From the NCBI GenBank assembly GCA_964464105.1, contig CAYXEY010000001.1:1-43278 (forward strand): a stretch of 43,278 bases of DNA, written 5' to 3'. The translations under genes were made by a program, and so were the position numbers. The notes below the pieces were generated by a model. That model saw nothing but the letters and a program-made list of their open reading frames with translations, was not told where the DNA came from and did not search any database. Positions 1-41,614 of this stretch are shown in pieces (the stretch's first letter is position 1; each line of letters opens with the position of its first letter). Origin of the DNA: an uncultured Planctomycetaceae bacterium (GTDB taxonomy: Bacteria > Planctomycetota > Phycisphaerae > UBA1845 > UTPLA1).

Positions 1-2
1 CC

Positions 3-551
3 GAAGCGGCCTTCCCATTTCCCGCCCCGGCGCACGCCGACGCCTACGCCTACCTGTTCGCCGGCCCGGCGCGCTTCTCCGCCGCAGCCGCCGGCATCCG
101 CTTCGACGCGCGCTACCTGGGCCTGCCGGTGCGCCGCGACGAGAAGGCGCTGCAGGCGATGCTGCAGCGCGCGCTGCCACTCACCGTGCTGCAGTACCGC
201 CGCGACCGCCTGCTGGTGCACAGCGTCGCCCAGCTGCTGGCCGCCAACCCGGCCGCTGCCCACACCGCCGAAGAGGTCGCCGCGCAACTGAACCTGTCGG
301 TGCGCACCCTGCACCGGCAGCTCAAGGAAGAATGCGTGTCGCTGCAGCGGCTAAAGAACGAGGTGCGGCACCAACACGCGGCTAACCTGCTCCTGCAGAC
401 GAGCAGGCCAGTAAAGCAGATCGCGGCAGCGGTGGGGTTCGACAGCGAGAAGAGTTTTGCTCGGGCGTTCAGGGAGTGGACCGGGGTGGCGCCGAGCGCG
501 TATCGGACAAGTGCTTCTTCACCGCCCCCAACACCTCGAACACCCCATTGA
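3..551 (+). CDS. AraC/XylS-family transcriptional regulator, C-terminal part (5' end lies outside the window)
   Basis: Frame 3 is open from base 3; the listed start at 129 is an internal GTG. Double HTH typical of the family: 'AEEVAAQLNLSVRTLHRQLK' and 'IAAAVGFDSEKSFARAFREWTGVAPSAYR'. Stop at 549-551. Confidence 0.8.
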   Translation, partial: EAAFPFPAPAHADAYAYLFAGPARFSAAAAGIRFDARYLGLPVRRDEKALQAMLQRALPLTVLQYRRDRLLVHSVAQLLAANPAAAHTAEEVAAQLNLSVRTLHRQLKEECVSLQRLKNEVRHQHAANLLLQTSRPVKQIAAAVGFDSEKSFARAFREWTGVAPSAYRTSASSPPPTPRTPH

Positions 552-587
552 TTCAAACCGCAGCGCCCAAGGGTTTCCCCTTGGAGC

Positions 588-657
588 TTAAGTGTTCTGA
601 CCGATTGTTGCATTTGGGGCCGTACGCTCAAATGCATCCGGGCCGAACACGATACGG
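588..657 (+). promoter_or_regulatory. Promoter-like element, copy A (GTGTTC-T-GACC-G-ATTG core; putative -35 TTGTTG at 605-610 and -10 TCAAAT at 628-633, 17-nt spacer)
   Basis: 52/70 identical (hand count, ungapped) to the reverse complement of 30061-30130 directly upstream of bbsA. Inverted arm GGCCGAACAC at 641-650. Lies 381 nt upstream of the chemoreceptor ATG. Confidence 0.4.
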
Positions 658-1014
658 CTCCCGCCAAGATATGCCGCCGCCCCCCTCCCGGCCCCTCCGC
701 CCGATCCCCTCCATCGGTCCGCCAAGAGCCCCCTCGCGATGAAGGTCAAACGAATTCATTCGCAGCCACCTTTGCGCATGGGGCCAACAACAGACATCGG
801 GCCGTTCGAGGTGGCTCCAGAGTTGCCCCCGTTCTCGCCGCGGCGAGACGCCACACGCCGCAAGCCCCCGTCAGACGAAATCGTCCGGTTCAAAAGGAAC
901 ATCAACAAGAACCGTCAGCCAGGAATTCTCCCGTGGCAACTGTCTGATGGCACCAGAACCTCTTATCGCCCGTCAATCAGAAGAACAAGAATCTGAGAAA
1001 ATGAGGACCGCACC

Positions 1015-2916
1015 ATGCACGCACTTAGAAGTCTAAGCATAAAAAGGAGACTATGGATTCCTGTATTTGTTCAGCTCCTGTTCCTCATCCTGATTGGCAC
1101 CTCCTACGTCCGCAGTTCGGAGCTGAGCGAGAAGCAGCAGGCGGATAGTGCAGCAACCGCAAGCCTCGCTTCAGCCGTGCGAGCGGTCGGCAGCGGCGTG
1201 CAGAACTATCTGTATGGAAAGGCAGAGTATGGCGCCGTGCAACAGCGACTACGCGAGGCCGAAGCGGCAGCCCTCGCGCGCGCGCAGACTGATCTAACGG
1301 AACGACTCAACGAGATTGGCAGCCTGGTTGAGCAGATTCAGGACACCTTCGAGCGCAGCAATGCCATACGCAAAACTATCTTTGATCTGACCGAATATTC
1401 CATCAAACAATCCGACGCTTATATTATACAGACAAGCGACCGCCTTAACGATCCGGGCGAACACACGAAAGTCACTCAATTGGAACGCCAGGTCCTGAAA
1501 GCAGCTCTCGTCAATAGCACGGACAACCTCAGAATACAGCTTCTTTTTTCCGCCATCGAAGACGATCTGGGCCGCAGCTCGGAGCTGGTACAATTCCTTG
1601 AGCGTGGAATCGAACGCACCGCAACTGCAGCCCAAAGACTCGCAGGGACTCCACTTCAGCATATGGCGATCGAAGGCGGCAAGGCAAATCAACAAATCCG
1701 TGATCTTGTACAGCGCCATATCAAGAACGTCGAACGACGCACGGAAGCCTCCAAGCATGTATTTTCAATCACCGATAGCCTCCTTGACTCCATCCGCAAG
1801 CTCGAGACCAACCGCCAGAAAATGGTGTTTGACGCCTTTACCAGCTTCCTGAGCACACTGATGCTCGTCATGCTTATTGCAACCGTCGCATTGATTCTAT
1901 TTCTTTTTGCGTTAGCTCGCAGCATCAGCAATCCGCTGCGCAATTTGACTCATACCATGGAACAACTTGCCCAAAATGGCGGCAATCTCACGTTCCGGCT
2001 GCCGGCGGAGCGTCATGACGAGATAGGCATCGTTTCTCACAGCGTCAACCAATTCATTGGCAAGCTGCAAGACATCTTTTGCGAGGTCTCGCACATTGTG
2101 GCCGCACTCGATATGGCAGCGGCGAGCACCAGCGAAAGCAATAGTGCCGTCAGCACAAATGCAGCGCAGCAGAAGCAGGAGACCACGCGTGTCGCACTCG
2201 CAATCACAGACATGGAGCGTTCCATACAGGAAGTCGCTGGCCGTGCGGCAGATGCAGCGGGCAACGCCGGCAGTGCCGACAATAACGTTCGACAGGCGCT
2301 CGAATCGCTCGAGAACAACATCCGCGGCATCGAGGACTTGGCTGCGCAGATTGCCGACACCCGCAAGCAGGTTGTCCAGCTAGAGCGTGATAGCAAGAAT
2401 ATCGGCGGCATCCTGGACGTCATCCGTGGAGTGGCCGAACAGACAAATCTGCTGGCACTAAACGCCGCAATCGAGGCAGCCCGCGCTGGTGAGCAAGGAC
2501 GAGGCTTTGCGGTGGTTGCCGACGAGGTGCGCGAACTGGCGTCCCGCACACAGGAAGCTACCCAACGCATACGGGAAATGATCGTCAATCTGCAGGGAGC
2601 GACAGACAAGGTTGCCAGCGCAATGGAGACCGGTGATGACCTGACTCAGAAATGCGTGGCGGTCGCTCGTCACGCGGGCCTGCAGCTCAATGACAGCGCA
2701 TCTGCGATAACCGAAATCAGTGATCAGACGGCCCAGATCGCAAGGGCGGTAGAGGATCAGAGCGCAGTGGCCAAGGAAATAGAACGCAATATCTTCGTCA
2801 TCGCCGACGCCGCCCACAGCACCGCGGGTGAAGCAGGCAATGCCGCCGAGACCGCTGAACAGCTGGCTGGGCAGGCTCGCCGCTTGGCAGGTTTGGTTCA
2901 TCAATTCAGTGTCTAG
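1015..2916 (+). CDS. Methyl-accepting chemotaxis protein (two TM segments, ~260-aa periplasmic helical sensor region, HAMP, MCP signalling domain)
   Basis: 633-aa ORF with GAGGA shortly upstream of the ATG. TM1 '[20 protein letters not shown]' and TM2 '[20 protein letters not shown]'. Invariant MCP hairpin tip '[38 protein letters not shown]'. Confidence 0.9.
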
Positions 2917-3043
2917 CGAAGACCCCGAACCATTTTGGGCCTCATTGAATCAACCGGCGGTCGATGCGTCGAAACTCGACGACGGCTTACGATGGACGAG
3001 GATAAACTAAACTCCCATCTCCAAATTCCCATAAGATGCCAGC

Positions 3044-3060
3044 GCAGCAAGCCTTGCTGC
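3044..3060. terminator. Palindrome GCAGCAAG-c-CTTGCTGC between two convergent genes (possible bidirectional terminator hairpin)
   Basis: Perfect 8+8 inverted repeat in the 199-nt gap between the chemoreceptor stop (2916) and the response-regulator stop (3116). No clear U-tract. Confidence 0.2.
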
Positions 3061-3115
3061 CGAGGCCTGTCTGCATTTTCCCACCAGCTGAGCCAGATCA
3101 GGCGATCCGCCTCGA

Positions 3116-6699
<3,584 letters not shown>

Positions 6700-7656
6700 C
6701 TACATGTTGATCCTGAATCCGCGCCCGGTCGCGTTGGCATCCGCGTGCGGATCGATGCCCGGAGAGCAACGCGGTGCGGTGCGCCTGCTCGAACGCGTAG
6801 AGGCGTCAGTCACTACTGTGCACAAGGATTACGTCTGTGCTGACCTGAACACCTCCGTGACCGACAAGCCCGCGGAGCCCCGGGCTCCGCACCGCATCCT
6901 TCCTCGCCTCCAGCGGCCGCGCACGCCTGCCTGACGCGAAGGTGCGGTGGCGCACCGCCAGCGGTTCCGGCGGTGTCCGTCTGCTGTTCGCGCTGGTCGA
7001 CGAGCGCAAGCGCTGGGCGGGCTCGGCACGCACGTTCGACTTCATCACCAAGTGGCATCCGCGCTGCCAGGCCAAGGCTGCCTGGATGGCCTGGTCCCCG
7101 GCTGGCGGCACGCTTGAGAAGACGCGCACAGGCAAGCCGGTGGGGTCGCTGGATCATCCAATCAGACGCCTTAACAAAAAAGCCAAGCGCTACCGCGTCA
7201 AACCCGGCTACCGACCTCGCCAACTCAAGGCCATTTCGCTGCCGCGACAGAACGGCGAGGGCTCCGGAGCATGAACTTGGCATGCCAGGCGCCCGCGACT
7301 CCCGGCTTCCCGGCACTTCGCGCGCCGGAAGGGCAGCGCCCGACTCCTTCCTGGACTGATCGCTCGGATCAAGGGGCTCACGCAACAGCATGCTAAATGA
7401 CTCCCGAATCAGTACATGCAGAAGGGAGCGCGGATTCCGATCGATCCAAACGCGAGCGCCGCACCAGCCTTTCCCGTCGTGCCATTTTTGCTGCACCGCA
7501 GCTAAACCAAAGTCTAATAGCCCTCAATGAGGCAAGAGCTCACCATGCCCCCACATGCATGACCAGCGAGTCTAGAGCAACCCGTGACACCTGCCGAATA
7601 CATTTTGAGCGAGCTCCGACGAAAAAGCGGAAAAGCAAGGGACATCACCACCCTGA

Positions 7657-7721
7657 TGGGTGTTCGCACCGATTGAAGTTGCCATCGAGGCAGATGCCTA
7701 ATGGAATCTCGCGAGAATCAC
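7657..7721 (+). promoter_or_regulatory. Promoter-like element, copy C, upstream of bssD (GTGTTC-G-CACC-G-ATTG core; putative -35 TTGAAG at 7673-7678 and -10 CCTAAT at 7697-7702)
   Basis: Shares the 17-nt core and the CTAATG box with copies A and B at almost the same spacing (1 nt difference from ATTG to AATG). The -10 lies 118 nt upstream of the bssD ATG at 7821. Confidence 0.4.
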
Positions 7722-7820: not shown

Positions 7821-8852
7821 ATGAAATTCACCACACGCGATGCAGGGGCTGACGTGAAAACTCCCTTAGTCACCGAAATACAGCGTTTTAGCTTGCAGGA
7901 TGGTCCGGGATTCCGGACGACGGTGTTCTTGAAGGGTTGCCCACTGAAATGTCCTTGGTGCCACAATCCTGAAACACAAAAGGTGACCAAGGAATACTAT
8001 TACAACCGTGATCGCTGCGTGAGCTGCGGACGGTGTGCGGCGGTCTGCCCAACCGGCGCATCGCAGCTGGTCGATGGGCCAAGAGGCACCCAGACCCTAA
8101 AGCTTGACCGCGACAAATGCACAAATTGCATGCGCTGCGTCGCTGTTTGCCTCACGGGCAGCCGCGAATCCGTCGGGGTTGAAATGACACTCGATGAGAT
8201 CCTGCAGGAAGTTTTGTCCGATGAGCCGTTTTACCGCAATAGCGGTGGCGGGGTCACAATCAGCGGCGGCGATCCTCTCTTTCATCCCGCGTTCACGTTG
8301 GAACTGGCACGCAGAATCAAGGAGCGCGGCGTCCACGTCGCGATCGAGACCTCCTGCTTTCCAAAGAAATGGGGAACGATCCAGCCGCTACTGGAGTTCG
8401 TCGACCTGTTCATCGTCGACCTGAAATCGCTGAATCCGAAAAAGCACGAGGAAGTCGTTGGCTGGCCACTGCAACCGATACTCGAAAATATCGAGCATCT
8501 CTTGCAAGCCAAGGCCGATGTTCGCATACACATCCCCGTAATCCCGGGGTTCAACGACTCCCCAACGGATTTCGAAGATTACATCACTTATTTGAGTCGT
8601 CATGCCGCGCGGCTGGACGGCGTGGACATTCTAAATTATCACGTCTATGGAGAAGGCAAGTACCGCTCCTTGGGCAGGGAAAAGGAGTACCAGTACTTGG
8701 GTGTGGAAGAGAACCCGCCCGAGAAGGTAGTACCACTCGCCAAAGGTTTGAAGCTCGCCGGCATCAAGAGCGTAACGATCGGCGGGTTGGTTGGGATCAC
8801 AGCGGACAGACACACGAGCAGTCGCGACGCTGGGACGGGGTGTATTGCATAA
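7821..8852 (+). CDS. bssD: Benzylsuccinate synthase activating enzyme (glycyl-radical enzyme activase, radical SAM with two extra ferredoxin-like clusters)
   Basis: Radical-SAM motif 'GCPLKCPWCHNPE' right after 'FSLQDGPGFRTTVFLKG'. Ferredoxin-like inserts 'CVSCGRCAAVCPTG' and 'CTNCMRCVAVC'. The internal ATG at 7821 ('MKFTTRD') is preferred over the listed 7701 start because the 40-aa extension looks non-coding. Confidence 0.9.
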   Translation: MKFTTRDAGADVKTPLVTEIQRFSLQDGPGFRTTVFLKGCPLKCPWCHNPETQKVTKEYYYNRDRCVSCGRCAAVCPTGASQLVDGPRGTQTLKLDRDKCTNCMRCVAVCLTGSRESVGVEMTLDEILQEVLSDEPFYRNSGGGVTISGGDPLFHPAFTLELARRIKERGVHVAIETSCFPKKWGTIQPLLEFVDLFIVDLKSLNPKKHEEVVGWPLQPILENIEHLLQAKADVRIHIPVIPGFNDSPTDFEDYITYLSRHAARLDGVDILNYHVYGEGKYRSLGREKEYQYLGVEENPPEKVVPLAKGLKLAGIKSVTIGGLVGITADRHTSSRDAGTGCIA

Positions 8853-8870
8853 ATCAAAGGAGACTCATCC

Positions 8871-9053
8871 ATGGGAACCACCACATGCAAGCAGTGCGCA
8901 AACTTCTTTCCCGTCCCCAAGGACGCGGATGACTACGAAGCAGGAAAGGCAGACTGCGTGCGCGAAAAGGAAGACGAAAAGGGCAAATACTGGCTCTCCA
9001 AGCCGGTATTCGAGAACAGCACGCAATGTGAAGCCTTTTACGCGAAGCGCTAA
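8871..9053 (+). CDS. bssC: Benzylsuccinate synthase gamma (small) subunit, four-Cys FeS-type
   Basis: 60 aa with AAGGAG upstream. Four Cys (positions 6, 9, 29, 53). Sits between the activase and the catalytic subunit, matching the canonical bssD-C-A-B order. 'KYWLSKPVFEN' is as remembered for BssC/TutF. Confidence 0.85.
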   Translation: MGTTTCKQCANFFPVPKDADDYEAGKADCVREKEDEKGKYWLSKPVFENSTQCEAFYAKR

Positions 9054-9076
9054 GACCAAAGCTTGAGGAGACCGCC

Positions 9077-11671
9077 ATGAACGACATCGTAAGCGCCAAG
9101 ATTCTGGAATATAAGGGGAAGACGCTCAATTTCACGCCGGAAGATCCGGCGGAAGCGAAGATTCCAGCCGACGAGTTGCACGAGCATCTGCAAAAACCTT
9201 CGACCGCTAGAACCAAGCGCTTGAAGGAGCGTTGCCGCTGGAAGCACGCATCCGCCGGCGAGTTCATCGAAAAGAGCGTCACGGCCGGCATCGAGCGCAT
9301 GCGCTATCTGACCGAAGCGCACAAGGCCAGCGAAGGCAAGCCCGAAGCCATCCGTCGCGCGCTCGGCCTGGCGAACGTTCTGAACAAGTCGACCCTGGTG
9401 CTTCAAGAGGACGAATTCATCGTCGGCTACCACGCCGAGGATCCCAACATGTTCCCGCTGTATCCCGAACTGTCCCACATGGCGGTTCAGGACTACCTGA
9501 GGAGCGACTACTCTCCACAGCCCGCCGACGAGGCTGCGGCGATCAACGAGTACTGGAAGCCGCACAGCCTGCAAAGCAAGTGCCAGCCCTACTTCGACCC
9601 GGCGGACCTGGGTCGCATGTACCAGGTCAGCAGCATGGAGGCCCCCTCCTTCGCGTCCGGTTACAACAGTATCGTGCCGCCCTACGAGACCGTCCTGGAG
9701 GACGGGCTGCTCGCGCGCATCAAGCTCGCCGAGAAGCATATCGCCGAAGCCCAGGGCGATATGTCCACCTTCCCCTGGAACGGCACCAAGGGTCTCGACA
9801 ACATCGCCAAGATCGACAACTGGAAGGCGATGGTCATCGCCTGCAAGGCGGTCATCAGCTGGGCGCGCCGTCAGGCCCGTCTGTGCCGGATCGTCGCCGA
9901 AAATTTTGAAACCGATCCGAAGCGCCAGGCCGAACTGCTCGAAATCGCCGACATCTGTCATCGCATTCCCGCCGAGCCCTGCAAGGGCCTCAAGGACGCG
10001 ATGCAGGCGAAGTTCTTCACCTTCCTGATCTGCCACGCCATCGAACGCTACGCGAGCGGCTACGCGCAGAAGGAAGACACCCTGCTGTGGCCGTACTACA
10101 AGGCTTCCGTAATCGACAAGAAGTTCCAGCCGATGGACCACATGGGCGCGGTGGAACTCGTCGAGATGGAACGTCTGAAGATTTCCGAGCACGGCGCCGG
10201 CAAGTCGCGCGCCTACCGCGAGATCTTTCCGGGTTCGAACGATCTGTTCATCCTCACCGTCGGCGGCACCAACGCCAGGGGCGAGGACGCCTGCAACGAC
10301 ATGACCGACGCCATCCTCGAGGCGGCCAAGCGGATCCGCACAGCCGAGCCTTCCATCGTCTTCCGCTATTCGAAGAAGAACCGTGAAAAGACGCTGCGCT
10401 GGGTTTTCGAGTGCATCCGCGACGGTCTCGGCTATCCGTCCATCAAGCACGACGAGATCGGCACGGAGCAGATGAAGGAATACGCCAAGTTCAGCCTGAA
10501 CGGCAACGGCGCCACCGACGAGGAAGCCCACAACTGGGTCAACGTGCTGTGCATGTCGCCCGGCATCCACGGCCGCCGCAAGACGCAAAAGACCCGCTCG
10601 GAAGGCGGCGGCTCGATCTTCCCGGCCAAGCTGCTGGAAATCACGCTGAACGACGGTTACGACTGGTCGTACGCCGACATGCAGTTGGGCCCCAAGACCG
10701 GCGATCTCGCATCGTTGAAGACCTTCGAGGACGTTTGGGAGGCCTTCCGCGAACAGTATCAGTACGCGATCAACCTCTGCATCTGCACCAAGGACGTGTC
10801 GCGCTACTTCGAGCAACGCTTCCTGCAGATGCCCTTCGTGTCCGCAATCGACGACGGCTGCATGGAACTCGGCATGGACGCCTGCGCCCTGTCCGAGCAA
10901 CCCAACGGCTGGCACAACCCGATCACGACGATCGTCGCGGCGAACTCCCTCGTGGCCATCAAGAAGCTGGTATTCGAGGAGAAGAAGTACACCCTCGAAC
11001 AACTCAGCCAGGCGCTGAAGGCGAACTGGGAAGGCTTCGAGGAAATGCGCGTCGATTTCAAGCGTGCGCCGAAGTGGGGCAACGACGACGACTACGCCGA
11101 CGGCATCATCACCCGCTTCTATGAGGAGATCATCGGCGGCGAGATGCGCAAGATCACCAACTACTCAGGCGGCCCGGTCATGCCGACTGGTCAGGCGGTC
11201 GGACTGTACATGGAAGTCGGCTCGCGCACGGGCCCCACGCCCGACGGTCGTTTCGGTGGCGAGGCAGCAGACGACGGTGGCATCTCTCCCTACATGGGCA
11301 CCGACAAGAAGGGCCCGACCGCGGTGCTGCGCTCCGTGTCGAAGGTGCAGAAGAACCAGAAGGGCAACCTGCTGAACCAGCGTCTGTCCGTGCCGATCAT
11401 GCGCTCCAAGCATGGTTTCGAAATCTGGAACTCGTACATGAAGACCTGGCACGACCTGAATATCGATCATGTTCAGTTCAACGTCGTCAGCACGGACGAA
11501 ATGCGCGCAGCGCAGCGCGAACCTGAGAAGCACCATGACCTCATCGTTCGCGTCTCGGGCTACAGCGCCCGGTTCGTCGACATTCCGACCTACGGGCAGA
11601 ACACCATCATTGCCCGTCAGGAACAGGACTTCAGCGCGTCCGATCTCGAGTTCCTGAACGTCGAGATTTGA
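9077..11671 (+). CDS. bssA: Benzylsuccinate synthase alpha subunit (fumarate-adding glycyl radical enzyme)
   Basis: 864 aa with GAGGAG RBS. Glycyl-radical motif 'RVSGYSARFVDI' near the C-terminus and thiyl-Cys loop 'NVLCMSPG'. The N-terminus 'MNDIVSAKILEYKGKTLNFTPEDPAE' is as remembered for BssA/TutD. Confidence 0.97.
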   Translation: MNDIVSAKILEYKGKTLNFTPEDPAEAKIPADELHEHLQKPSTARTKRLKERCRWKHASAGEFIEKSVTAGIERMRYLTEAHKASEGKPEAIRRALGLANVLNKSTLVLQEDEFIVGYHAEDPNMFPLYPELSHMAVQDYLRSDYSPQPADEAAAINEYWKPHSLQSKCQPYFDPADLGRMYQVSSMEAPSFASGYNSIVPPYETVLEDGLLARIKLAEKHIAEAQGDMSTFPWNGTKGLDNIAKIDNWKAMVIACKAVISWARRQARLCRIVAENFETDPKRQAELLEIADICHRIPAEPCKGLKDAMQAKFFTFLICHAIERYASGYAQKEDTLLWPYYKASVIDKKFQPMDHMGAVELVEMERLKISEHGAGKSRAYREIFPGSNDLFILTVGGTNARGEDACNDMTDAILEAAKRIRTAEPSIVFRYSKKNREKTLRWVFECIRDGLGYPSIKHDEIGTEQMKEYAKFSLNGNGATDEEAHNWVNVLCMSPGIHGRRKTQKTRSEGGGSIFPAKLLEITLNDGYDWSYADMQLGPKTGDLASLKTFEDVWEAFREQYQYAINLCICTKDVSRYFEQRFLQMPFVSAIDDGCMELGMDACALSEQPNGWHNPITTIVAANSLVAIKKLVFEEKKYTLEQLSQALKANWEGFEEMRVDFKRAPKWGNDDDYADGIITRFYEEIIGGEMRKITNYSGGPVMPTGQAVGLYMEVGSRTGPTPDGRFGGEAADDGGISPYMGTDKKGPTAVLRSVSKVQKNQKGNLLNQRLSVPIMRSKHGFEIWNSYMKTWHDLNIDHVQFNVVSTDEMRAAQREPEKHHDLIVRVSGYSARFVDIPTYGQNTIIARQEQDFSASDLEFLNVEI

Positions 11672-11684
11672 AAAGATCTACTGG

Positions 11685-11709
11685 AGAGGGGGGCTTCCTG
11701 CTCCCCTCT
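11685..11709 (+). other. Intercistronic stem-loop between bssA and bssB (10-bp stem with one G-U pair, 5-nt loop)
   Basis: AGAGGGGGGC (11685-11694), loop TTCCT, GCTCCCCTCT (11700-11709). No U-tract follows, so this looks more like an mRNA processing or stability element than a terminator. Confidence 0.35.
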
Positions 11710-11746
11710 GCTTATGGTCATACCAAGAGATATGGAGGGCTACAAC

Positions 11747-11977
11747 ATGGAAGCAGAAAAGAACTTGCAAAACCAGCCGCATGCCGAGGTCGGTACGGCG
11801 AGGCCGTGCCGTAGCTGCAAGTGGCAAACCCCCGATCCCACCGATCCGCACCGTGGGCAATGCACCGCCAACCGCCACGCCATGGGGGGCGTCTGGAAAC
11901 GCTGGCTCAGGGACGTCGAAAACACGACCTGCTCCAGACACGAGGAAGGCAAACTCAGCTTCCGCGACCACGTCTGA
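11747..11977 (+). CDS. bssB: Benzylsuccinate synthase beta (small) subunit, four-Cys FeS-type
   Basis: The ATG at 11747 has GGAGGG 8 nt upstream; the listed 11714 start is probably too long. 'PCRSCKWQTPDPTDPHRGQCTANRHAMGGVWKRW...TCSRHEEGKLSFRDHV' carries four Cys, as remembered for BssB/TutG. Confidence 0.85.
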   Translation: MEAEKNLQNQPHAEVGTARPCRSCKWQTPDPTDPHRGQCTANRHAMGGVWKRWLRDVENTTCSRHEEGKLSFRDHV

Positions 11978-12024
11978 GCATCGGACAGACGTGGCTAACC
12001 TCCCGACCATTGTAACGATAGATC

Positions 12025-30044: not shown

Positions 30045-30060
30045 GACACCTCCGCAGGAA

Positions 30061-30130
30061 TTGTTTCGTGTTCGACCTGGAGTCATTAGAGCGCGCGTGC
30101 CGACACGCAACAATTGGTCGGAACACCTAA
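30061..30130 (-). promoter_or_regulatory. Promoter-like element, copy B, upstream of bbsA (GTGTTC-C-GACC-A-ATTG core; putative -35 TTGTTG at 30108-30113 and -10 TCTAAT at 30085-30090, 17-nt spacer)
   Basis: See copy A (52/70 identical). Inverted arms GTGTTCcGACC and GGTCGAACAC flank the -35/-10 region. The -10 lies 40 nt upstream of the bbsA ATG. Confidence 0.45.
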
Positions 30131-30957
30131 GGGATAAGAACAATCCCTGCCCCCGAAACACCGCGCAAACCCGTGCACCGATCTTCGCGCTCCCGCCAAG
30201 TTCGCCGAAAACGAGGCCCCGACTCCTTTCAAAACCGAAGGTTGGCGTCATCGCCGTCGAGCACTTGTCCCGCCCGCTGGCGGAGCCCCATTGCAGGCAT
30301 GCCCCCAGAGCGCTCCGCTGCAGACATGCCTGCCGGGATCGCTGCCTTGGGGTACGTCAAGCTCGTGGAAGTCGGTCGGGGCAAGGCCGCGCAGTGGCGC
30401 CGGCGCAGGAAGGAAACGGAGGCGCTGATGGCGCCCGGGGGGCAGAACTGGCGCGTTACCAGCGATCCGGTGGAGCCCTTCGCTGCCCTGCTGCCATCCC
30501 ATGGATACAGCATCCCGATGATCCCCAGCCACCGGCTTCCTCGCCACCGGCAAGCGCACGACCCATACTCACCGCAGCCGCCAAGTCGATCGATGTCGTA
30601 CCCGGAAATGGCGCAATCGTGACCGGTCCGGCACAGTCGAAACTCCACGCTTGACCGTACAGCACACCGATCACGATCGTGCGAATGCGCGGCGAGCCTT
30701 GCCGCCATCGACCGCCAGCGTTCGGCCCGCGCATTACCCATTTCGCGGCGAGCCTGGCGCCGACTTCAGGTGCCGCATGCGTTCCAGCCGGGCCAGCTCA
30801 AGGACTGCCGCACGGGAGTCGGGAACCAAGCCTCCACCTCCATGCCTGCCCTCCACCCGCGGCCGGCGCCAGCCGGCCAGGGCGCCCCCCGCCTGCCGTC
30901 ACGGCGCCGGCCTTCCATGACGCACTTCCAAGCCCGGACTGAATGCCTGCGCGATCG

Positions 30958-37766: not shown

Positions 37767-38559
37767 TCTTGTCTCCCGCTTTCCCAGACCCTCGCGGCCC
37801 GCCATTCGAGGCGCGCTCGTCTACCACCTGAACCAAACCAATTGACCTCGCGCATCCAGGATGCGAACTCGCGCGTCACCAACGGAAACAGCGCGAGGAC
37901 CGCTTGGTCAATGGGAATATGGTTTTACGTTTCGCATCGCTGAAGAAGCCGTATCCGGGATACCGGCTCGGCATTTTTTCCGGCTTTCCGGAACTACTGC
38001 ACGTCGAGTTGCACAGGGCATAGCTTTCACATCAACAGAATGAACAACCAACGCAGGTCACCTCTCCTCGCCATTCTCGTATCGGCTGGCTTGCATTAAC
38101 GTCTCTGCGCGAAACGAAGAAAGTGCATTGACTTTAGTTCGCCGAGCAAGCGCTTTGGTGAGGTTCGACGAGTTGCCGGCATGACGCCGCCTACTGCTTA
38201 ACAGCGCGTTAGCCATGGTTTGCGCGGGATTGGTTTTTGACTAAATGGCAGCAGCTACACAAGTACGCCAAAGATCACCGCGTAGTGTCTATGCCAGGCA
38301 ACCTTCGAGCTTTGCGCAGCGAACTGACGATGGCTGCAGGCTAGGGGGCTTGCACCACCGCGACAAGTGGTGCTAACACTCAAACGCCTAGGGCCAGCCC
38401 TACAGACGAAGCGCGGGTGTTGCTGCAGAATCTCCAAGGCGCCTGATCGCCTGCTGTCCTGAGCAAGCTCACCCAAGCCAGCCATTCATGCCGACTACGA
38501 TGATCATGTCTTCCACTTGCACAGCTGCTTTGCGAGGCCTTTCGAGTCTCGTTAGCCCT

Positions 38560-39208: not shown

Positions 39209-40849
39209 ATGAGCGGATACCTACCAAAGGAGCGCAAGATGCACGGGGATAACACAAGCGACTCCGCCGCCGGGTACGAAGTCATATTCCGCAACACGCC
39301 CTTGGCGATCTGCCACTTGCGGAACCGCATTTTCGTCCGCTGCAATACGCGACTTGAAGAGTTGTTCGGCTATTCGAGAGGCGAGCTAGACAATCGGTCT
39401 GTACGGCTGCTGTATCCAACCGAAGACTCATTCCAGATAATCGAAGACACATACGGTCATTTCTTCGAACGCCACGAAACCTTTAAAGACGAGCGCCCGT
39501 TTATTCGTAAGGATGGCTCTGTCGTTTGGTGTATCGTGACCGGTGCGCTGCTTGACCCTTCCAGGCCACGGCTCGGATCGATTTGGGTAATTCAGGACAT
39601 ATCCGAACACAAGCGCATAGAGGACAATCTGAAGGCCAGCGTCGAAAAACTTGAAATCCTGGTCCACCAACGAACACTCGAGCTACACAAGCATGTCAAG
39701 GAGCTCGAGCAGGAAGTTGCAACGCGGAAGCTAGCGGAAGATGCTGCGAACGAGAACCGGGAAAAATACGAGAAACTCTTTCATATGCTCCCCATCGGAA
39801 TTTCGATCACCTCCGATAGCGGCATGATTCTTGAAGCCAACTACCAGTTCAACGAAATTATCGGCGCTCCTAAAACACCTCCCGCAACATGGCAACAACT
39901 GCCTCAACGATTCTCTCTCAGCGACGGGACGGGGGTATCGAAGAGACGATTGCCTTGGCGGATCCACGACCTCCAAAGAGATTCACTCAGAAATATCGAG
40001 ATCGGGATGCAAGACGAGGAGAGCCACAAGGTTCGGTGGTTGAGCGTCAGCTCATCGTTACTGGAGCTCAAGAACGAGAAGATGGTCGTGGCGGCATTCA
40101 CCGACATCACGTATCGCAAGCGGATCGAGAAACTGGAGAGGTTGCGCCACGCGGAACTCACCCGCCTTGGGCGTATCGACGCGATGGCGGGGATGGCTGC
40201 AGCACTCGCACATCAAATGGGCCAGCCCTTGGTTTCAGCAGTCAATTACCTTCAGGGCTGCCGACTGCGGCTTGAACATGTGGAGGGCACTGCGGAGATT
40301 TCTCGATCGCTGGAGCTTGCGACAACTCACCTCGATCAGGCTGGCGAGATTCTAAGGCGGATCAAGGATTTCGTCTGCAAGCACAAACCCGAAAAAGTTC
40401 CCGAGAGCATCAACGAAGTCATTCAGGACACGCTTTCATTTCTTAGTTTCGAAATTCATCGATTCAAGGTTGAAATTCAGCTCCAGCTGATGGCTTCGCC
40501 TCCGCTTGTCCCTCTCTGCAAGATTGAAATCCAGCAGGTTCTTTTCAATCTGATCAAGAATGGAATCGAAGCAATGTCTGAAATGGAGCCACCTTCTCGG
40601 ATACTTACAATCGGAAACGAAGTTATCGCTGAAGGACGATTGATGAAGGTATTCGTCCAAGACCATGGCGCTGGCCTCGAGCGAAAGACGGCCAAGCGCG
40701 TCTTCGAGCCCTACTTCACAACCAAACCGGACGGACTCGGGATTGGGCTGGCAATCTGCCGATCGATTATCGAATCACACGGCGGCGAACTTTCGTTTTC
40801 GAAGACAGAGCAACGCGGATCACGATTCCAGTTCACCTTGCCAATGTAA
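39209..40849 (+). CDS. tdiS: PAS-domain sensor histidine kinase, TdiS-like
   Basis: 546 aa with GAGGAG 9 nt upstream. Two PAS regions ('VIFRNTPLAICHLRNRIFVRCNTRLEELFGYSRGEL', 'LFHMLPIGISITSDSGMILEANYQFNEIIG'). H-box 'AAALAHQMGQPL'. ATPase 'QDHGAGL...GLGIGLAICRSIIESHGG'. Confidence 0.85.
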   Translation: MSGYLPKERKMHGDNTSDSAAGYEVIFRNTPLAICHLRNRIFVRCNTRLEELFGYSRGELDNRSVRLLYPTEDSFQIIEDTYGHFFERHETFKDERPFIRKDGSVVWCIVTGALLDPSRPRLGSIWVIQDISEHKRIEDNLKASVEKLEILVHQRTLELHKHVKELEQEVATRKLAEDAANENREKYEKLFHMLPIGISITSDSGMILEANYQFNEIIGAPKTPPATWQQLPQRFSLSDGTGVSKRRLPWRIHDLQRDSLRNIEIGMQDEESHKVRWLSVSSSLLELKNEKMVVAAFTDITYRKRIEKLERLRHAELTRLGRIDAMAGMAAALAHQMGQPLVSAVNYLQGCRLRLEHVEGTAEISRSLELATTHLDQAGEILRRIKDFVCKHKPEKVPESINEVIQDTLSFLSFEIHRFKVEIQLQLMASPPLVPLCKIEIQQVLFNLIKNGIEAMSEMEPPSRILTIGNEVIAEGRLMKVFVQDHGAGLERKTAKRVFEPYFTTKPDGLGIGLAICRSIIESHGGELSFSKTEQRGSRFQFTLPM

Positions 40850-40906
40850 TTGACGTTCATGAATTATTCCTGCAGTAGCACTTGACAGCGCAAGAAGGAG
40901 AGTCTC

Positions 40907-41614
40907 ATGCAACCCACAACGATCGAAAGTACGCCAACAGTATTTGTCGTCGACGACGAGGCGTCGGTCAGAGACTCGCTCGCTTGGCTCCTCAATTCGA
41001 TCTCCCTGAATGTTCGGACATTCGAATCCGCGAGAGATTTTCTTGACGCCAACGTTTCCTGTCTTTACGGCTGCCTTATTCTCGATGTTCGAATGCAGAA
41101 CGTAAGTGGATTGCAGTTGCAACAGGCACTGTACGAAAGGAACTTCAAGCTCCCGATAATTTTCCTTTCAGCCTACGGCGACGCCCAGATGGGCGCACAG
41201 GCAGTCAAGAGAGGCGCCTTCGACTTCCTTCAAAAACCTTACCGCAATCAGGATCTACTCGATGCGGTGAACGCCGCACTCGCGGCATGCAAAGAGGCGA
41301 GAGATAAGCAAAGTGAAAAACAAAAACACCTCGACCTTCTTTCAACATTGTCACAACGGGAATTGGAAATCCTTGAAAAGGTCGTTGCCGGAAACAGCAG
41401 CAAAGAAATTGCCAGATTACTGGACATCAGTTACAAGACCGTTGAAGCACACCGAGGGCGCATCATGAGCAAGCTTGGATTAAGATCCACCGGCGATCTG
41501 ATTCATTTCACGATCCGTAACAGCAGTCATTGCGGCGACTGCGAATGGAGCTCTAATACCGGATCGAAATCACGTCTTCCTGCACCTGGGAAGTGCCCCT
41601 CCAGATCAGAATGA
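40907..41614 (+). CDS. tdiR: FixJ/NarL(LuxR)-type response regulator, TdiR-like
   Basis: 235 aa. Receiver 'VFVVDDEASVRDSL...LILDVRMQNVSGLQL...IIFLSAYGD...KRGAFDFLQKP'. HTH 'LSQRELEILEKVVAGNSSKEIARLLDISYKTVEAHRGRIMSKLG'. About 35-aa Cys/Ser-rich tail after the HTH. Confidence 0.85.
   Translation: MQPTTIESTPTVFVVDDEASVRDSLAWLLNSISLNVRTFESARDFLDANVSCLYGCLILDVRMQNVSGLQLQQALYERNFKLPIIFLSAYGDAQMGAQAVKRGAFDFLQKPYRNQDLLDAVNAALAACKEARDKQSEKQKHLDLLSTLSQRELEILEKVVAGNSSKEIARLLDISYKTVEAHRGRIMSKLGLRSTGDLIHFTIRNSSHCGDCEWSSNTGSKSRLPAPGKCPSRSE

Follow-up and report, generated by a model that had tools for sequence, protein, structure and literature searches.

A toluene-regulon promoter-operator element and a candidate further member of the regulon upstream of a chemoreceptor gene

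Introduction

Within the 43,278-nt stretch of DNA analysed here (hereafter the window), an initial annotation had pointed out three copies of an element of about 70 nt, two of them where the promoters of the bbs and bss operons are expected and one upstream of a chemoreceptor (MCP) gene, which raises the question of whether the toluene regulon of this organism extends to a chemoreceptor. The three sequences quoted for the element were all found in the window, at 588-657, at 7657-7721 and on the reverse complement of 30061-30130. The window is the longest contig of the bin, and the features needed for the analysis are as follows.

3-551, plus strand: AraC-type regulator gene, 3' part
588-657, plus strand: copy A
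1015-2916, plus strand: MCP gene, 633 aa (Pfam HAMP and MCPsignal)
3116-3763, minus strand: TodT/TutB-like response regulator gene
3748-6687, minus strand: TodS/TutC-like double kinase gene, 979 aa
7657-7721, plus strand: copy C
from 7857 (GTG of bssD), plus strand: bssD (BssD equivalog match), then the rest of the bss operon
from 30044 (ATG of bbsA) downward, minus strand: bbs operon (BbsA equivalog match)
30061-30130, minus strand: copy B
37805 down to 30958, minus strand: BNR/MMPL/DUF1302/DUF1329 operon
39209-40849, plus strand: tdiS, 546 aa (Pfam domains)
40907-41614, plus strand: tdiR, 235 aa (Pfam domains)

The TutCB-like pair adjoins the MCP gene and is divergent to bssD. Based on loci collected with BbsA, the bbs cluster is closest to those of Aromatoleum tolulyticum, A. 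toluolicum and A. toluclasticum, with BbsA identities of 95-96%.

Copies of the element in the window and in the assembly

The ungapped alignment of copy A with the reverse complement of copy B gave 52 identical positions out of 70, in agreement with the count reported earlier, with a binomial P of 4.5e-17 at the base composition of the window and of about 8e-8 after correction for all position pairs in the window. In a repeat search, no inverted repeat of the window was longer than this pair (570-664 against 30054-30148), and the identity over these 95 nt was 64/95 by alignment and 71% in the repeat search. Copy C could be aligned to A (61%) and B (72%) only with a 3-nt gap after the box, and the spacer between its -35 and -10 hexamers is 18 nt in comparison to 17 nt in A and B.

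To describe the distribution of the element, the 16-mer GTGTTCNNACCRATTG was counted and a position weight matrix (PWM) was scanned over the genome. The 16-mer occurs three times in the 6.1-Mb, 1012-contig assembly, each time within this window, and once among 48 other genomes of the same family. The PWM of 24 nt was built from 20 sites in other genomes only (Aromatoleum and Herminiimonas) and was scanned over 12.1 million positions of the 6.1-Mb assembly, with the following best scores.

Rank 1: copy B, 32.0
Rank 2: copy A, 26.6
Rank 3: copy D (38384, minus strand), 21.8
Rank 4: copy C, 17.2
Rank 5: background, 16.0

The four best matches genome-wide are thus all in the island, so that copy A is not a generic repeat, and the rank of copy A within them indicates that it is a true member of a family that is not a dispersed repeat. 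A blastn search of positions 540-1020 against the assembly returned only the region itself and copy B. The reading that the similarity arose by chance, or that the element is a generic dispersed repeat, has nothing in its favour other than the shortness of the element; given the corrected P value, the total of four copies in 6.1 Mb, all inside the 43-kb toluene island, and the blastn result, we regard it as practically negligible. A dispersed intergenic repeat of the REP or MITE kind was likewise rejected, as there are only four copies and none at unrelated sites of the genome.

Relation to the published promoters and architecture across genomes

The palindromic sequence GGTGTTCGCACC upstream of the -35 of PbssD and PbbsA was proposed as the operator of TdiR, and it is described as conserved in Azoarcus, Aromatoleum, Thauera and Herminiimonas, according to the account of Blazquez et al. 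2018 (PMC5874301), which cites Kube et al. 2004 for it. In Azoarcus sp. CIB, PbssD, PbbsA and PtdiS are activated by TdiR (PMC5874301), and for Magnetospirillum 15-1 the operator motif was given as ARGTGTYCGCACC (PMC7285207). The box of the present element is this published, proposed operator. Copies B and C are therefore already known objects, B being PbbsA and C a PbssD-type promoter, both with the proposed TdiR operator, and the idea of a common toluene-responsive promoter/operator, which had been put forward for the three copies as an inference, is the published view, so that the assignment of the copies to one promoter/operator family of the toluene regulon holds. The placement of B at the promoter of the bbs operon also holds, since B is orthologous to PbbsA of Aromatoleum spp. 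and lies 5' of the BbsA equivalog. In comparison to the denitrifying toluene degraders Aromatoleum aromaticum EbN1, Thauera aromatica, Azoarcus sp. CIB and Magnetospirillum sp. 15-1, to whose PbbsA and PbssD copies B and C are orthologous, copies A and D carry the same box in the same position relative to the -35 and with the same spacer, and tdiSR is present here as it is there.

We then examined the architecture of the module through a whole-genome pattern scan of ten bbs-carrying genomes. Exactly three copies were found in each of six Aromatoleum genomes, namely PbbsA, PbssD and a third one that has the orientation of PbbsA and lies about 7.2 kb upstream of it, while Herminiimonas sp. CN has the third-class copy and PbbsA, one fragmented Aromatoleum assembly has two copies, and two MAGs have none. 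In a related contig the third copy stands before the BNR/MMPL/DUF1302/DUF1329 operon. All three promoter classes have in common a distal dyad, (T)AGGG..CCCT(A), which precedes the box centre by about 21 bp, a 16-bp box with the consensus TTAGGTGTnCGCACCAATTG which abuts a weak -35, and a -10 at 17-18 nt after the TTGTTG/TTGGTT -35. The same architecture was observed in a Telmatospirillum-type contig, and a weaker form of it in a Motiliproteus-type contig. The distance from dyad to box is the same in A, B, C and D and in the majority of sites from other genomes, and the copies other than A have the following layout.

7638-7702, plus strand: copy C, PbssD-type; dyad 7638-7654, box 7657-7672, -35 7673-7678, -10 7697-7702
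30085-30148, minus strand: copy B, PbbsA; dyad 30148-30130, box 30129-30114, -35 30113-30108, -10 30090-30085
38338-38402, minus strand: copy D; dyad 38402-38389, box TGAGTGTTAGCACCAC 38382-38367, -35 TTGTCG 38366-38361, 17-nt spacer, -10 TAGCCT 38343-38338

The alignment of these sites suggests that the operator may be bipartite, with a distal dyad and a proximal box 21 bp apart. The published operator description is of the proximal 12-13 bp only (PMC5874301; PMC7285207), and the operator descriptions in these two papers mention neither the distal AGGG..CCCT dyad nor the third promoter class. The dyad was seen in nearly all sites of the three classes (loci L062-L083), where its distance of about 21 bp from the box corresponds to two helical turns.

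Copy D is a fourth and more degenerate copy that had been missed earlier. It faces the BNR/MMPL/DUF1302/DUF1329 operon, which encodes an AmeABCD-like transporter, and is divergent to orf254-tdiSR. In Aromatoleum and Herminiimonas genomes a promoter of this class is conserved some 7.2 kb 5' of PbbsA (L064, L066, L067, L069, L070, L080, L082, L089:1383 and L099), and the genes behind it have been termed orfB-E, of unknown function, with no mention of the box there (PMC5874301; PMC7285207). The known operator thus gains a third conserved target in Aromatoleum and Herminiimonas, an AmeABCD-like envelope transporter operon.

The nucleotide homology (86%) to an Aromatoleum-type contig (L089:8562) begins exactly at the 5' edge of B, at 30130, and runs through the bbs operon, and the transporter genes upstream of B are too diverged from that contig for blastn.

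The regulator that may act on the element

Two regulators encoded in the window had been named as candidates for binding the element, TdiR and the TutB-like protein. The window TdiR is 69% identical to the TdiR beside the Aromatoleum-type bbs cluster, in comparison to only 42% for the TutB-like protein. The latter carries the K-V-H recognition residues of the StyR/TodT type, while the helix of TdiR differs (PMC5874301). The candidacy of TdiR was strengthened, as the box is its proposed operator and the tdiSR pair is encoded at 39209-41614; tdiSR is presumed to be the cognate two-component system of the box.

The candidacy of the TutB-like protein did not survive. A search of the window for the TodT box ATAAACN4GTTTAT returned four matches with three mismatches in comparison to 3.5 expected, none of them near A, B or D, so that the box is at chance level and the reading of A, B and D as TodT/StyR-box promoters was rejected. 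That the element is instead a target of the TodT/TutB-like regulator (3116-3763) could be argued from the position of the TutCB-like pair, adjoining the MCP gene and divergent to bssD. This is, however, a very improbable reading in view of its StyR/TodT-type recognition residues, of the TodT box count, and of the conservation of the box in clusters of the Aromatoleum, Herminiimonas and Telmatospirillum types, where the linked regulator pair is TdiSR in both box-carrying loci checked. The TodS/TodT system of Pseudomonas putida (PtodX) and the StyS/StyR system resemble the present one in that a NarL/FixJ-type response regulator of a two-component system turns on the promoter of a hydrocarbon pathway from palindromic boxes that lie 5' of a weak core promoter, and a TodST-like pair is present in the window, but the box sequence and the recognition helix differ.

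Anatomy, class and conservation of copy A

Copy A has the following parts.

567-584, plus strand: distal dyad CCAAGGG-TTTC-CCCTTGG, centre 21 bp upstream of the box centre
589-604, plus strand: proximal box TAAGTGTTCTGACCGA, a TdiR-operator variant with PWM score 26.6, centre at about -43 from the predicted start
605-633, plus strand: core promoter; -35 TTGTTG 605-610, 17-nt spacer, -10 TCAAAT 628-633
640-1014, plus strand: predicted start at about 640-645 and leader of about 375 nt, beginning with the PbbsA-type GAACACGATAC (645-655)

The corresponding dyads of the other copies lie at 7638-7654 (C), 30130-30148 (B) and 38389-38402 (D). Positions 590-602 of A read AAGTGTTCTGACC and match the published Magnetospirillum motif at 11 of 13 positions, and the two deviations lie in the central and right part of the box, one of them in common with B; where the published operator has GC and C, the box of A reads TG and G. 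Wherever A departs from the box consensus, the same change can be found in a bona fide promoter: A for G in PbssD, GACC in B, and G before ATTG in C. The box is directly upstream of the -35 and abuts it, and the hexamers and the 17-nt spacer are in the same register as in B and in the Aromatoleum PbbsA. The core promoter of A was not called by a scan with the strict sigma-70 consensus, as is expected for an activator-dependent promoter.

Several features place A in the PbbsA class, namely ATTGTTGC, the 17-nt spacer, and GAACACGAnAC after the -10, which is present in Aromatoleum PbbsA promoters and in no other class. The inverted arm GAACAC noted earlier just past the -10 is real in A and B, but it is not the flank of a mobile cassette: it is kept in the Aromatoleum PbbsA and is absent from PbssD, from the transporter-operon promoters and from the Herminiimonas PbbsA, and judging from this distribution it is a feature of the PbbsA class at about +5 to +15. 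Copy A resembles B (64/95) more than it does any PbbsA of Aromatoleum (59% at most), and only these two copies have the derived half-site GACC in place of CACC. By this comparison A is a PbbsA-type copy and a paralogue of B, and the simplest history would be that the B module was duplicated in this lineage. The suggestion of a copied promoter cassette, which had been offered earlier as the alternative to a regulatory role, was in substance right. Apart from these likenesses, A differs from the published PbbsA and PbssD in preceding an MCP gene and not a catabolic gene, and in its leader of about 375 nt.

Two tests of conservation were made. The first used the 23 columns that are conserved over all three classes in other genomes. 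The consensus is matched at 19 of them by A and equally by B, and A and B are identical at 20 of the 23 in comparison to 44 of the 72 other positions (Fisher one-sided p = 0.017). The second used the columns that are invariant among the Aromatoleum PbbsA promoters and showed no excess conservation in A (p = 0.55). Taken together, the two results make the evidence for purifying selection on A moderate, not strong. In other contigs with an identical MCP, both A and the leader are identical, without polymorphism. In the leader (640-1030) we found no Rfam family, no sigma-70 consensus promoter, no terminator-like site, no unusual RNA fold (z = 0.2) and no convincing open reading frame, and a search for a homologue of the leader elsewhere found none. 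Among 8 genomes and 15 metagenome loci every occurrence of the element precedes bssD, bbsA or the AmeA-type operon, and none is near an MCP gene.

RNA evidence at copy A and its leader

The RNA data consisted of assembler contigs of public runs that were placed on the window. RNA-labelled runs from three studies gave pieces in the leader.

645-833: contig, run X35
801-1004: piece, runs X33 and X34
829-979 and 1003-1153: read pair, run X27, spanning the ATG

The X35 contig starts 12 nt after the -10 of A, and the bss contig of this run starts no more than 2 nt away from the 5' end that other runs show. Low-coverage DNA runs also yield pieces at 747-1147 that are similar to the leader pieces of X33, X34 and X27; these three were therefore downgraded as RNA support, and only the X35 piece carries weight. 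In the eight runs which contain bss transcripts of this organism (X38-X45), no contig was found over positions 1-4000, and the MCP transcript is therefore much rarer than that of bss and probably rarer than that of bbs. For orientation, in the best run, X38, the bss word depth is 53-91, and bbs, the transporter operon, tdiSR and tutC are represented by pieces of depth 2-7. The strain in X38 differs from the window by 13 substitutions and one deletion within 7595-7692, and it may differ elsewhere too. The 5' end of copy B is without RNA contig coverage.

The chemoreceptor gene

The MCP consists of a predicted periplasmic helical bimodular (HBM) domain, a HAMP domain and an MCP signalling domain. 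Its ligand-binding domain (window 1096-1890) has no sequence match in Pfam or PDB, and its predicted structure (mean pLDDT 74 for the protein, about 80-90 in the periplasmic domain) gave a fold match to McpS of Pseudomonas putida KT2440 (2YFA/2YFB, with malate or succinate bound), over 236-244 columns with a TM score of 0.50-0.63 (normalised by target) and a probability of 1.00. The two proteins thus have the helical bimodular fold in common, with a sequence identity of only 10-12%, and benzylsuccinate as the ligand would be pure speculation. No homologue of the MCP exceeded 35% identity, the best ones lie in unrelated neighbourhoods, and the search for related loci with the MCP protein was empty, which makes a comparative test of copy A impossible.

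The assembly is 89% complete with 4.3% contamination, and its single MCP gene is the one in the window; genes for CheW, CheR or another MCP were not found in these 6.1 Mb. An FlhA homologue is present on contig C192. In the family, CheW is missing from 21 of the 49 genomes, whereas 8-29 MCP genes are present in Aromatoleum and Herminiimonas genomes. A behavioural output of the MCP is therefore doubtful, unless che genes were missed by the assembly or the island comes from a different host. Chemoreceptor genes that are co-regulated with aromatic catabolism include NahY (NAH7), McpT (pGRT1) and the TodST-dependent toluene taxis of P. putida F1, all of them aerobic Pseudomonas systems with complete Che pathways. 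The idea of a receptor gene that lies in or beside a catabolic island and is induced along with the pathway would be the same here, while no Che partners were found in the bin.

What copy A may be doing

Since A keeps every part of the validated promoters, the most likely mechanism is a TdiR-driven start at A. In this reading the anaerobic toluene (TdiSR) regulon has the element as its promoter-operator module, of which PbbsA (B), the PbssD-type copy C and copy D at the transporter operon are ordinary members, and a PbbsA segment from about -75 to +20 would have been duplicated in this lineage and would now stand about 375 nt upstream of the orphan HBM-type MCP gene. Phosphorylated TdiR may bind A at about -43, and probably also the dyad at about -64, and may recruit sigma-70 RNA polymerase, so that a transcript from about 640-645 would read toward the MCP gene, with an output that appears to be low in situ. 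While the homology, the anatomy, the uniqueness in the genome and the presence of tdiSR are observed, the binding of TdiR to A, the inducibility, the read-through into the MCP gene and any behavioural effect are to be understood as expectations of this model. We consider the chances about even that A is a still-functional, weak TdiR-dependent promoter. In its favour we counted the PWM rank, the 64/95 match to B, the enrichment of identity at the conserved columns, the dyad distance, the X35 contig, the occurrence of each box deviation in bona fide promoters and the literature on the proposed TdiR operator (PMC5874301; PMC7285207). Against it we counted the lack of RNA over 1-4000 in X38-X45, the leader pieces in DNA runs, the second conservation test, the leader of about 375 nt, the lack of an MCP-linked copy elsewhere and the lack of CheW, CheR and other MCP genes.

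Several of the same observations would also be expected if A were a non-functional relic, a PbbsA fragment left by the rearrangement that built a mosaic island and now decaying beside an unrelated, horizontally acquired MCP gene. The divergence of A and B, 33% over 95 nt, the failure to detect MCP RNA in eight runs with bss RNA, a bin without Che machinery, a 375-nt leader without a homologue anywhere and the non-significant second test all point in this direction, and the start of the Aromatoleum-type homology exactly at the edge of B suggests that promoters served as recombination boundaries. A decaying fragment is, however, harder to reconcile with an intact box, dyad, -35, -10 and 17-nt spacer, with operator columns that are enriched in identity, with a PWM score above those of C and D, and with an RNA contig that starts at 645; on balance we hold it for a serious possibility, somewhat below an even chance. 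A may also be active and yield only a short leader RNA, or act as a decoy site for TdiR, with the MCP gene not expressed, as the RNA-labelled pieces (645-833, 801-1004, 829-979) are commoner in the leader than in the coding sequence. The preference for 750-1150 is, however, found in the DNA runs as well, the X27 read pair (829-1153) crosses the ATG, and the leader is without an Rfam family, terminator-like site or unusual fold, so that this reading seems improbable.

Returning to A as a TdiR-dependent promoter, the recruitment of the chemoreceptor into the toluene regulon, as proposed in the initial annotation, is unproven: the module is intact and an RNA contig starts at 645, and on the other side stand the eight bss runs with no MCP RNA and the missing CheW, CheR and other MCP genes. 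The more specific proposal, in which the benzylsuccinate/toluene-sensing TdiSR system captured a chemoreceptor gene through the PbbsA duplication, so that an HBM-type receptor with a McpS-like fold of the dicarboxylate type is made only during toluene degradation, we regard as rather unlikely. If true, it would for the first time connect the anaerobic toluene pathway genetically with taxis, and it would be a clean example of the growth of a regulon by duplication of a promoter module. If A is active, the anaerobic toluene regulon would extend past catabolism and transport to sensing or behaviour, by a route, the copying of a promoter-operator module of about 95 nt, that is visible in the sequence; if A is a relic, the finding is an ordinary one and only documents promoters at the recombination boundaries of a mosaic island. 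In general, the element is a known one, and what is new is an unproven candidate for the regulon, copy A before the MCP gene.

Transcripts of the bss operon in relation to copy C

The bss contigs of five runs from two studies start at nearly the same position.

7564: run X39
7565: run X38, sequencing adapter joined directly
7567: run X35
7570: run X41
7570: run X45

Copy C had been taken as the promoter of the bss operon. The presence of a PbssD-type element 5' of bssD agrees with this, but the RNA contigs of all five runs start upstream of the box. The RNA end is about 145 nt upstream of the start predicted from the -10 of C and precedes the bssD start codon by 292 nt, and contig data cannot show an internal start such as one near 7709. 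The dominant 5' end of the bss RNA is therefore separated from box C, which is downstream of it, by about 92 nt, and a second, internal start would be invisible in these data. By eye, no sigma-70 or sigma-54 consensus is evident before 7565. The sequence CTAAACCAAAGTCTAA (7502-7517), at about -55 from the RNA end at 7565 and near the divergent TodST-like genes, is a half-match to the TodT box with three mismatches, which is at chance level.

Three of the changes within 7595-7692 in the X38 strain lie inside box C, and the same strain is identical to the window over 8811-12000. These differences mark the bss promoter region as a local hot spot of variation or recombination. In addition, X38 shows a discrete RNA end and start with adapter at 8811/8840, just before bssC, where the depth steps from about 54 to 91. 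This junction fits the processing site or internal promoter before bssC that was reported for Thauera, as cited in PMC5874301.
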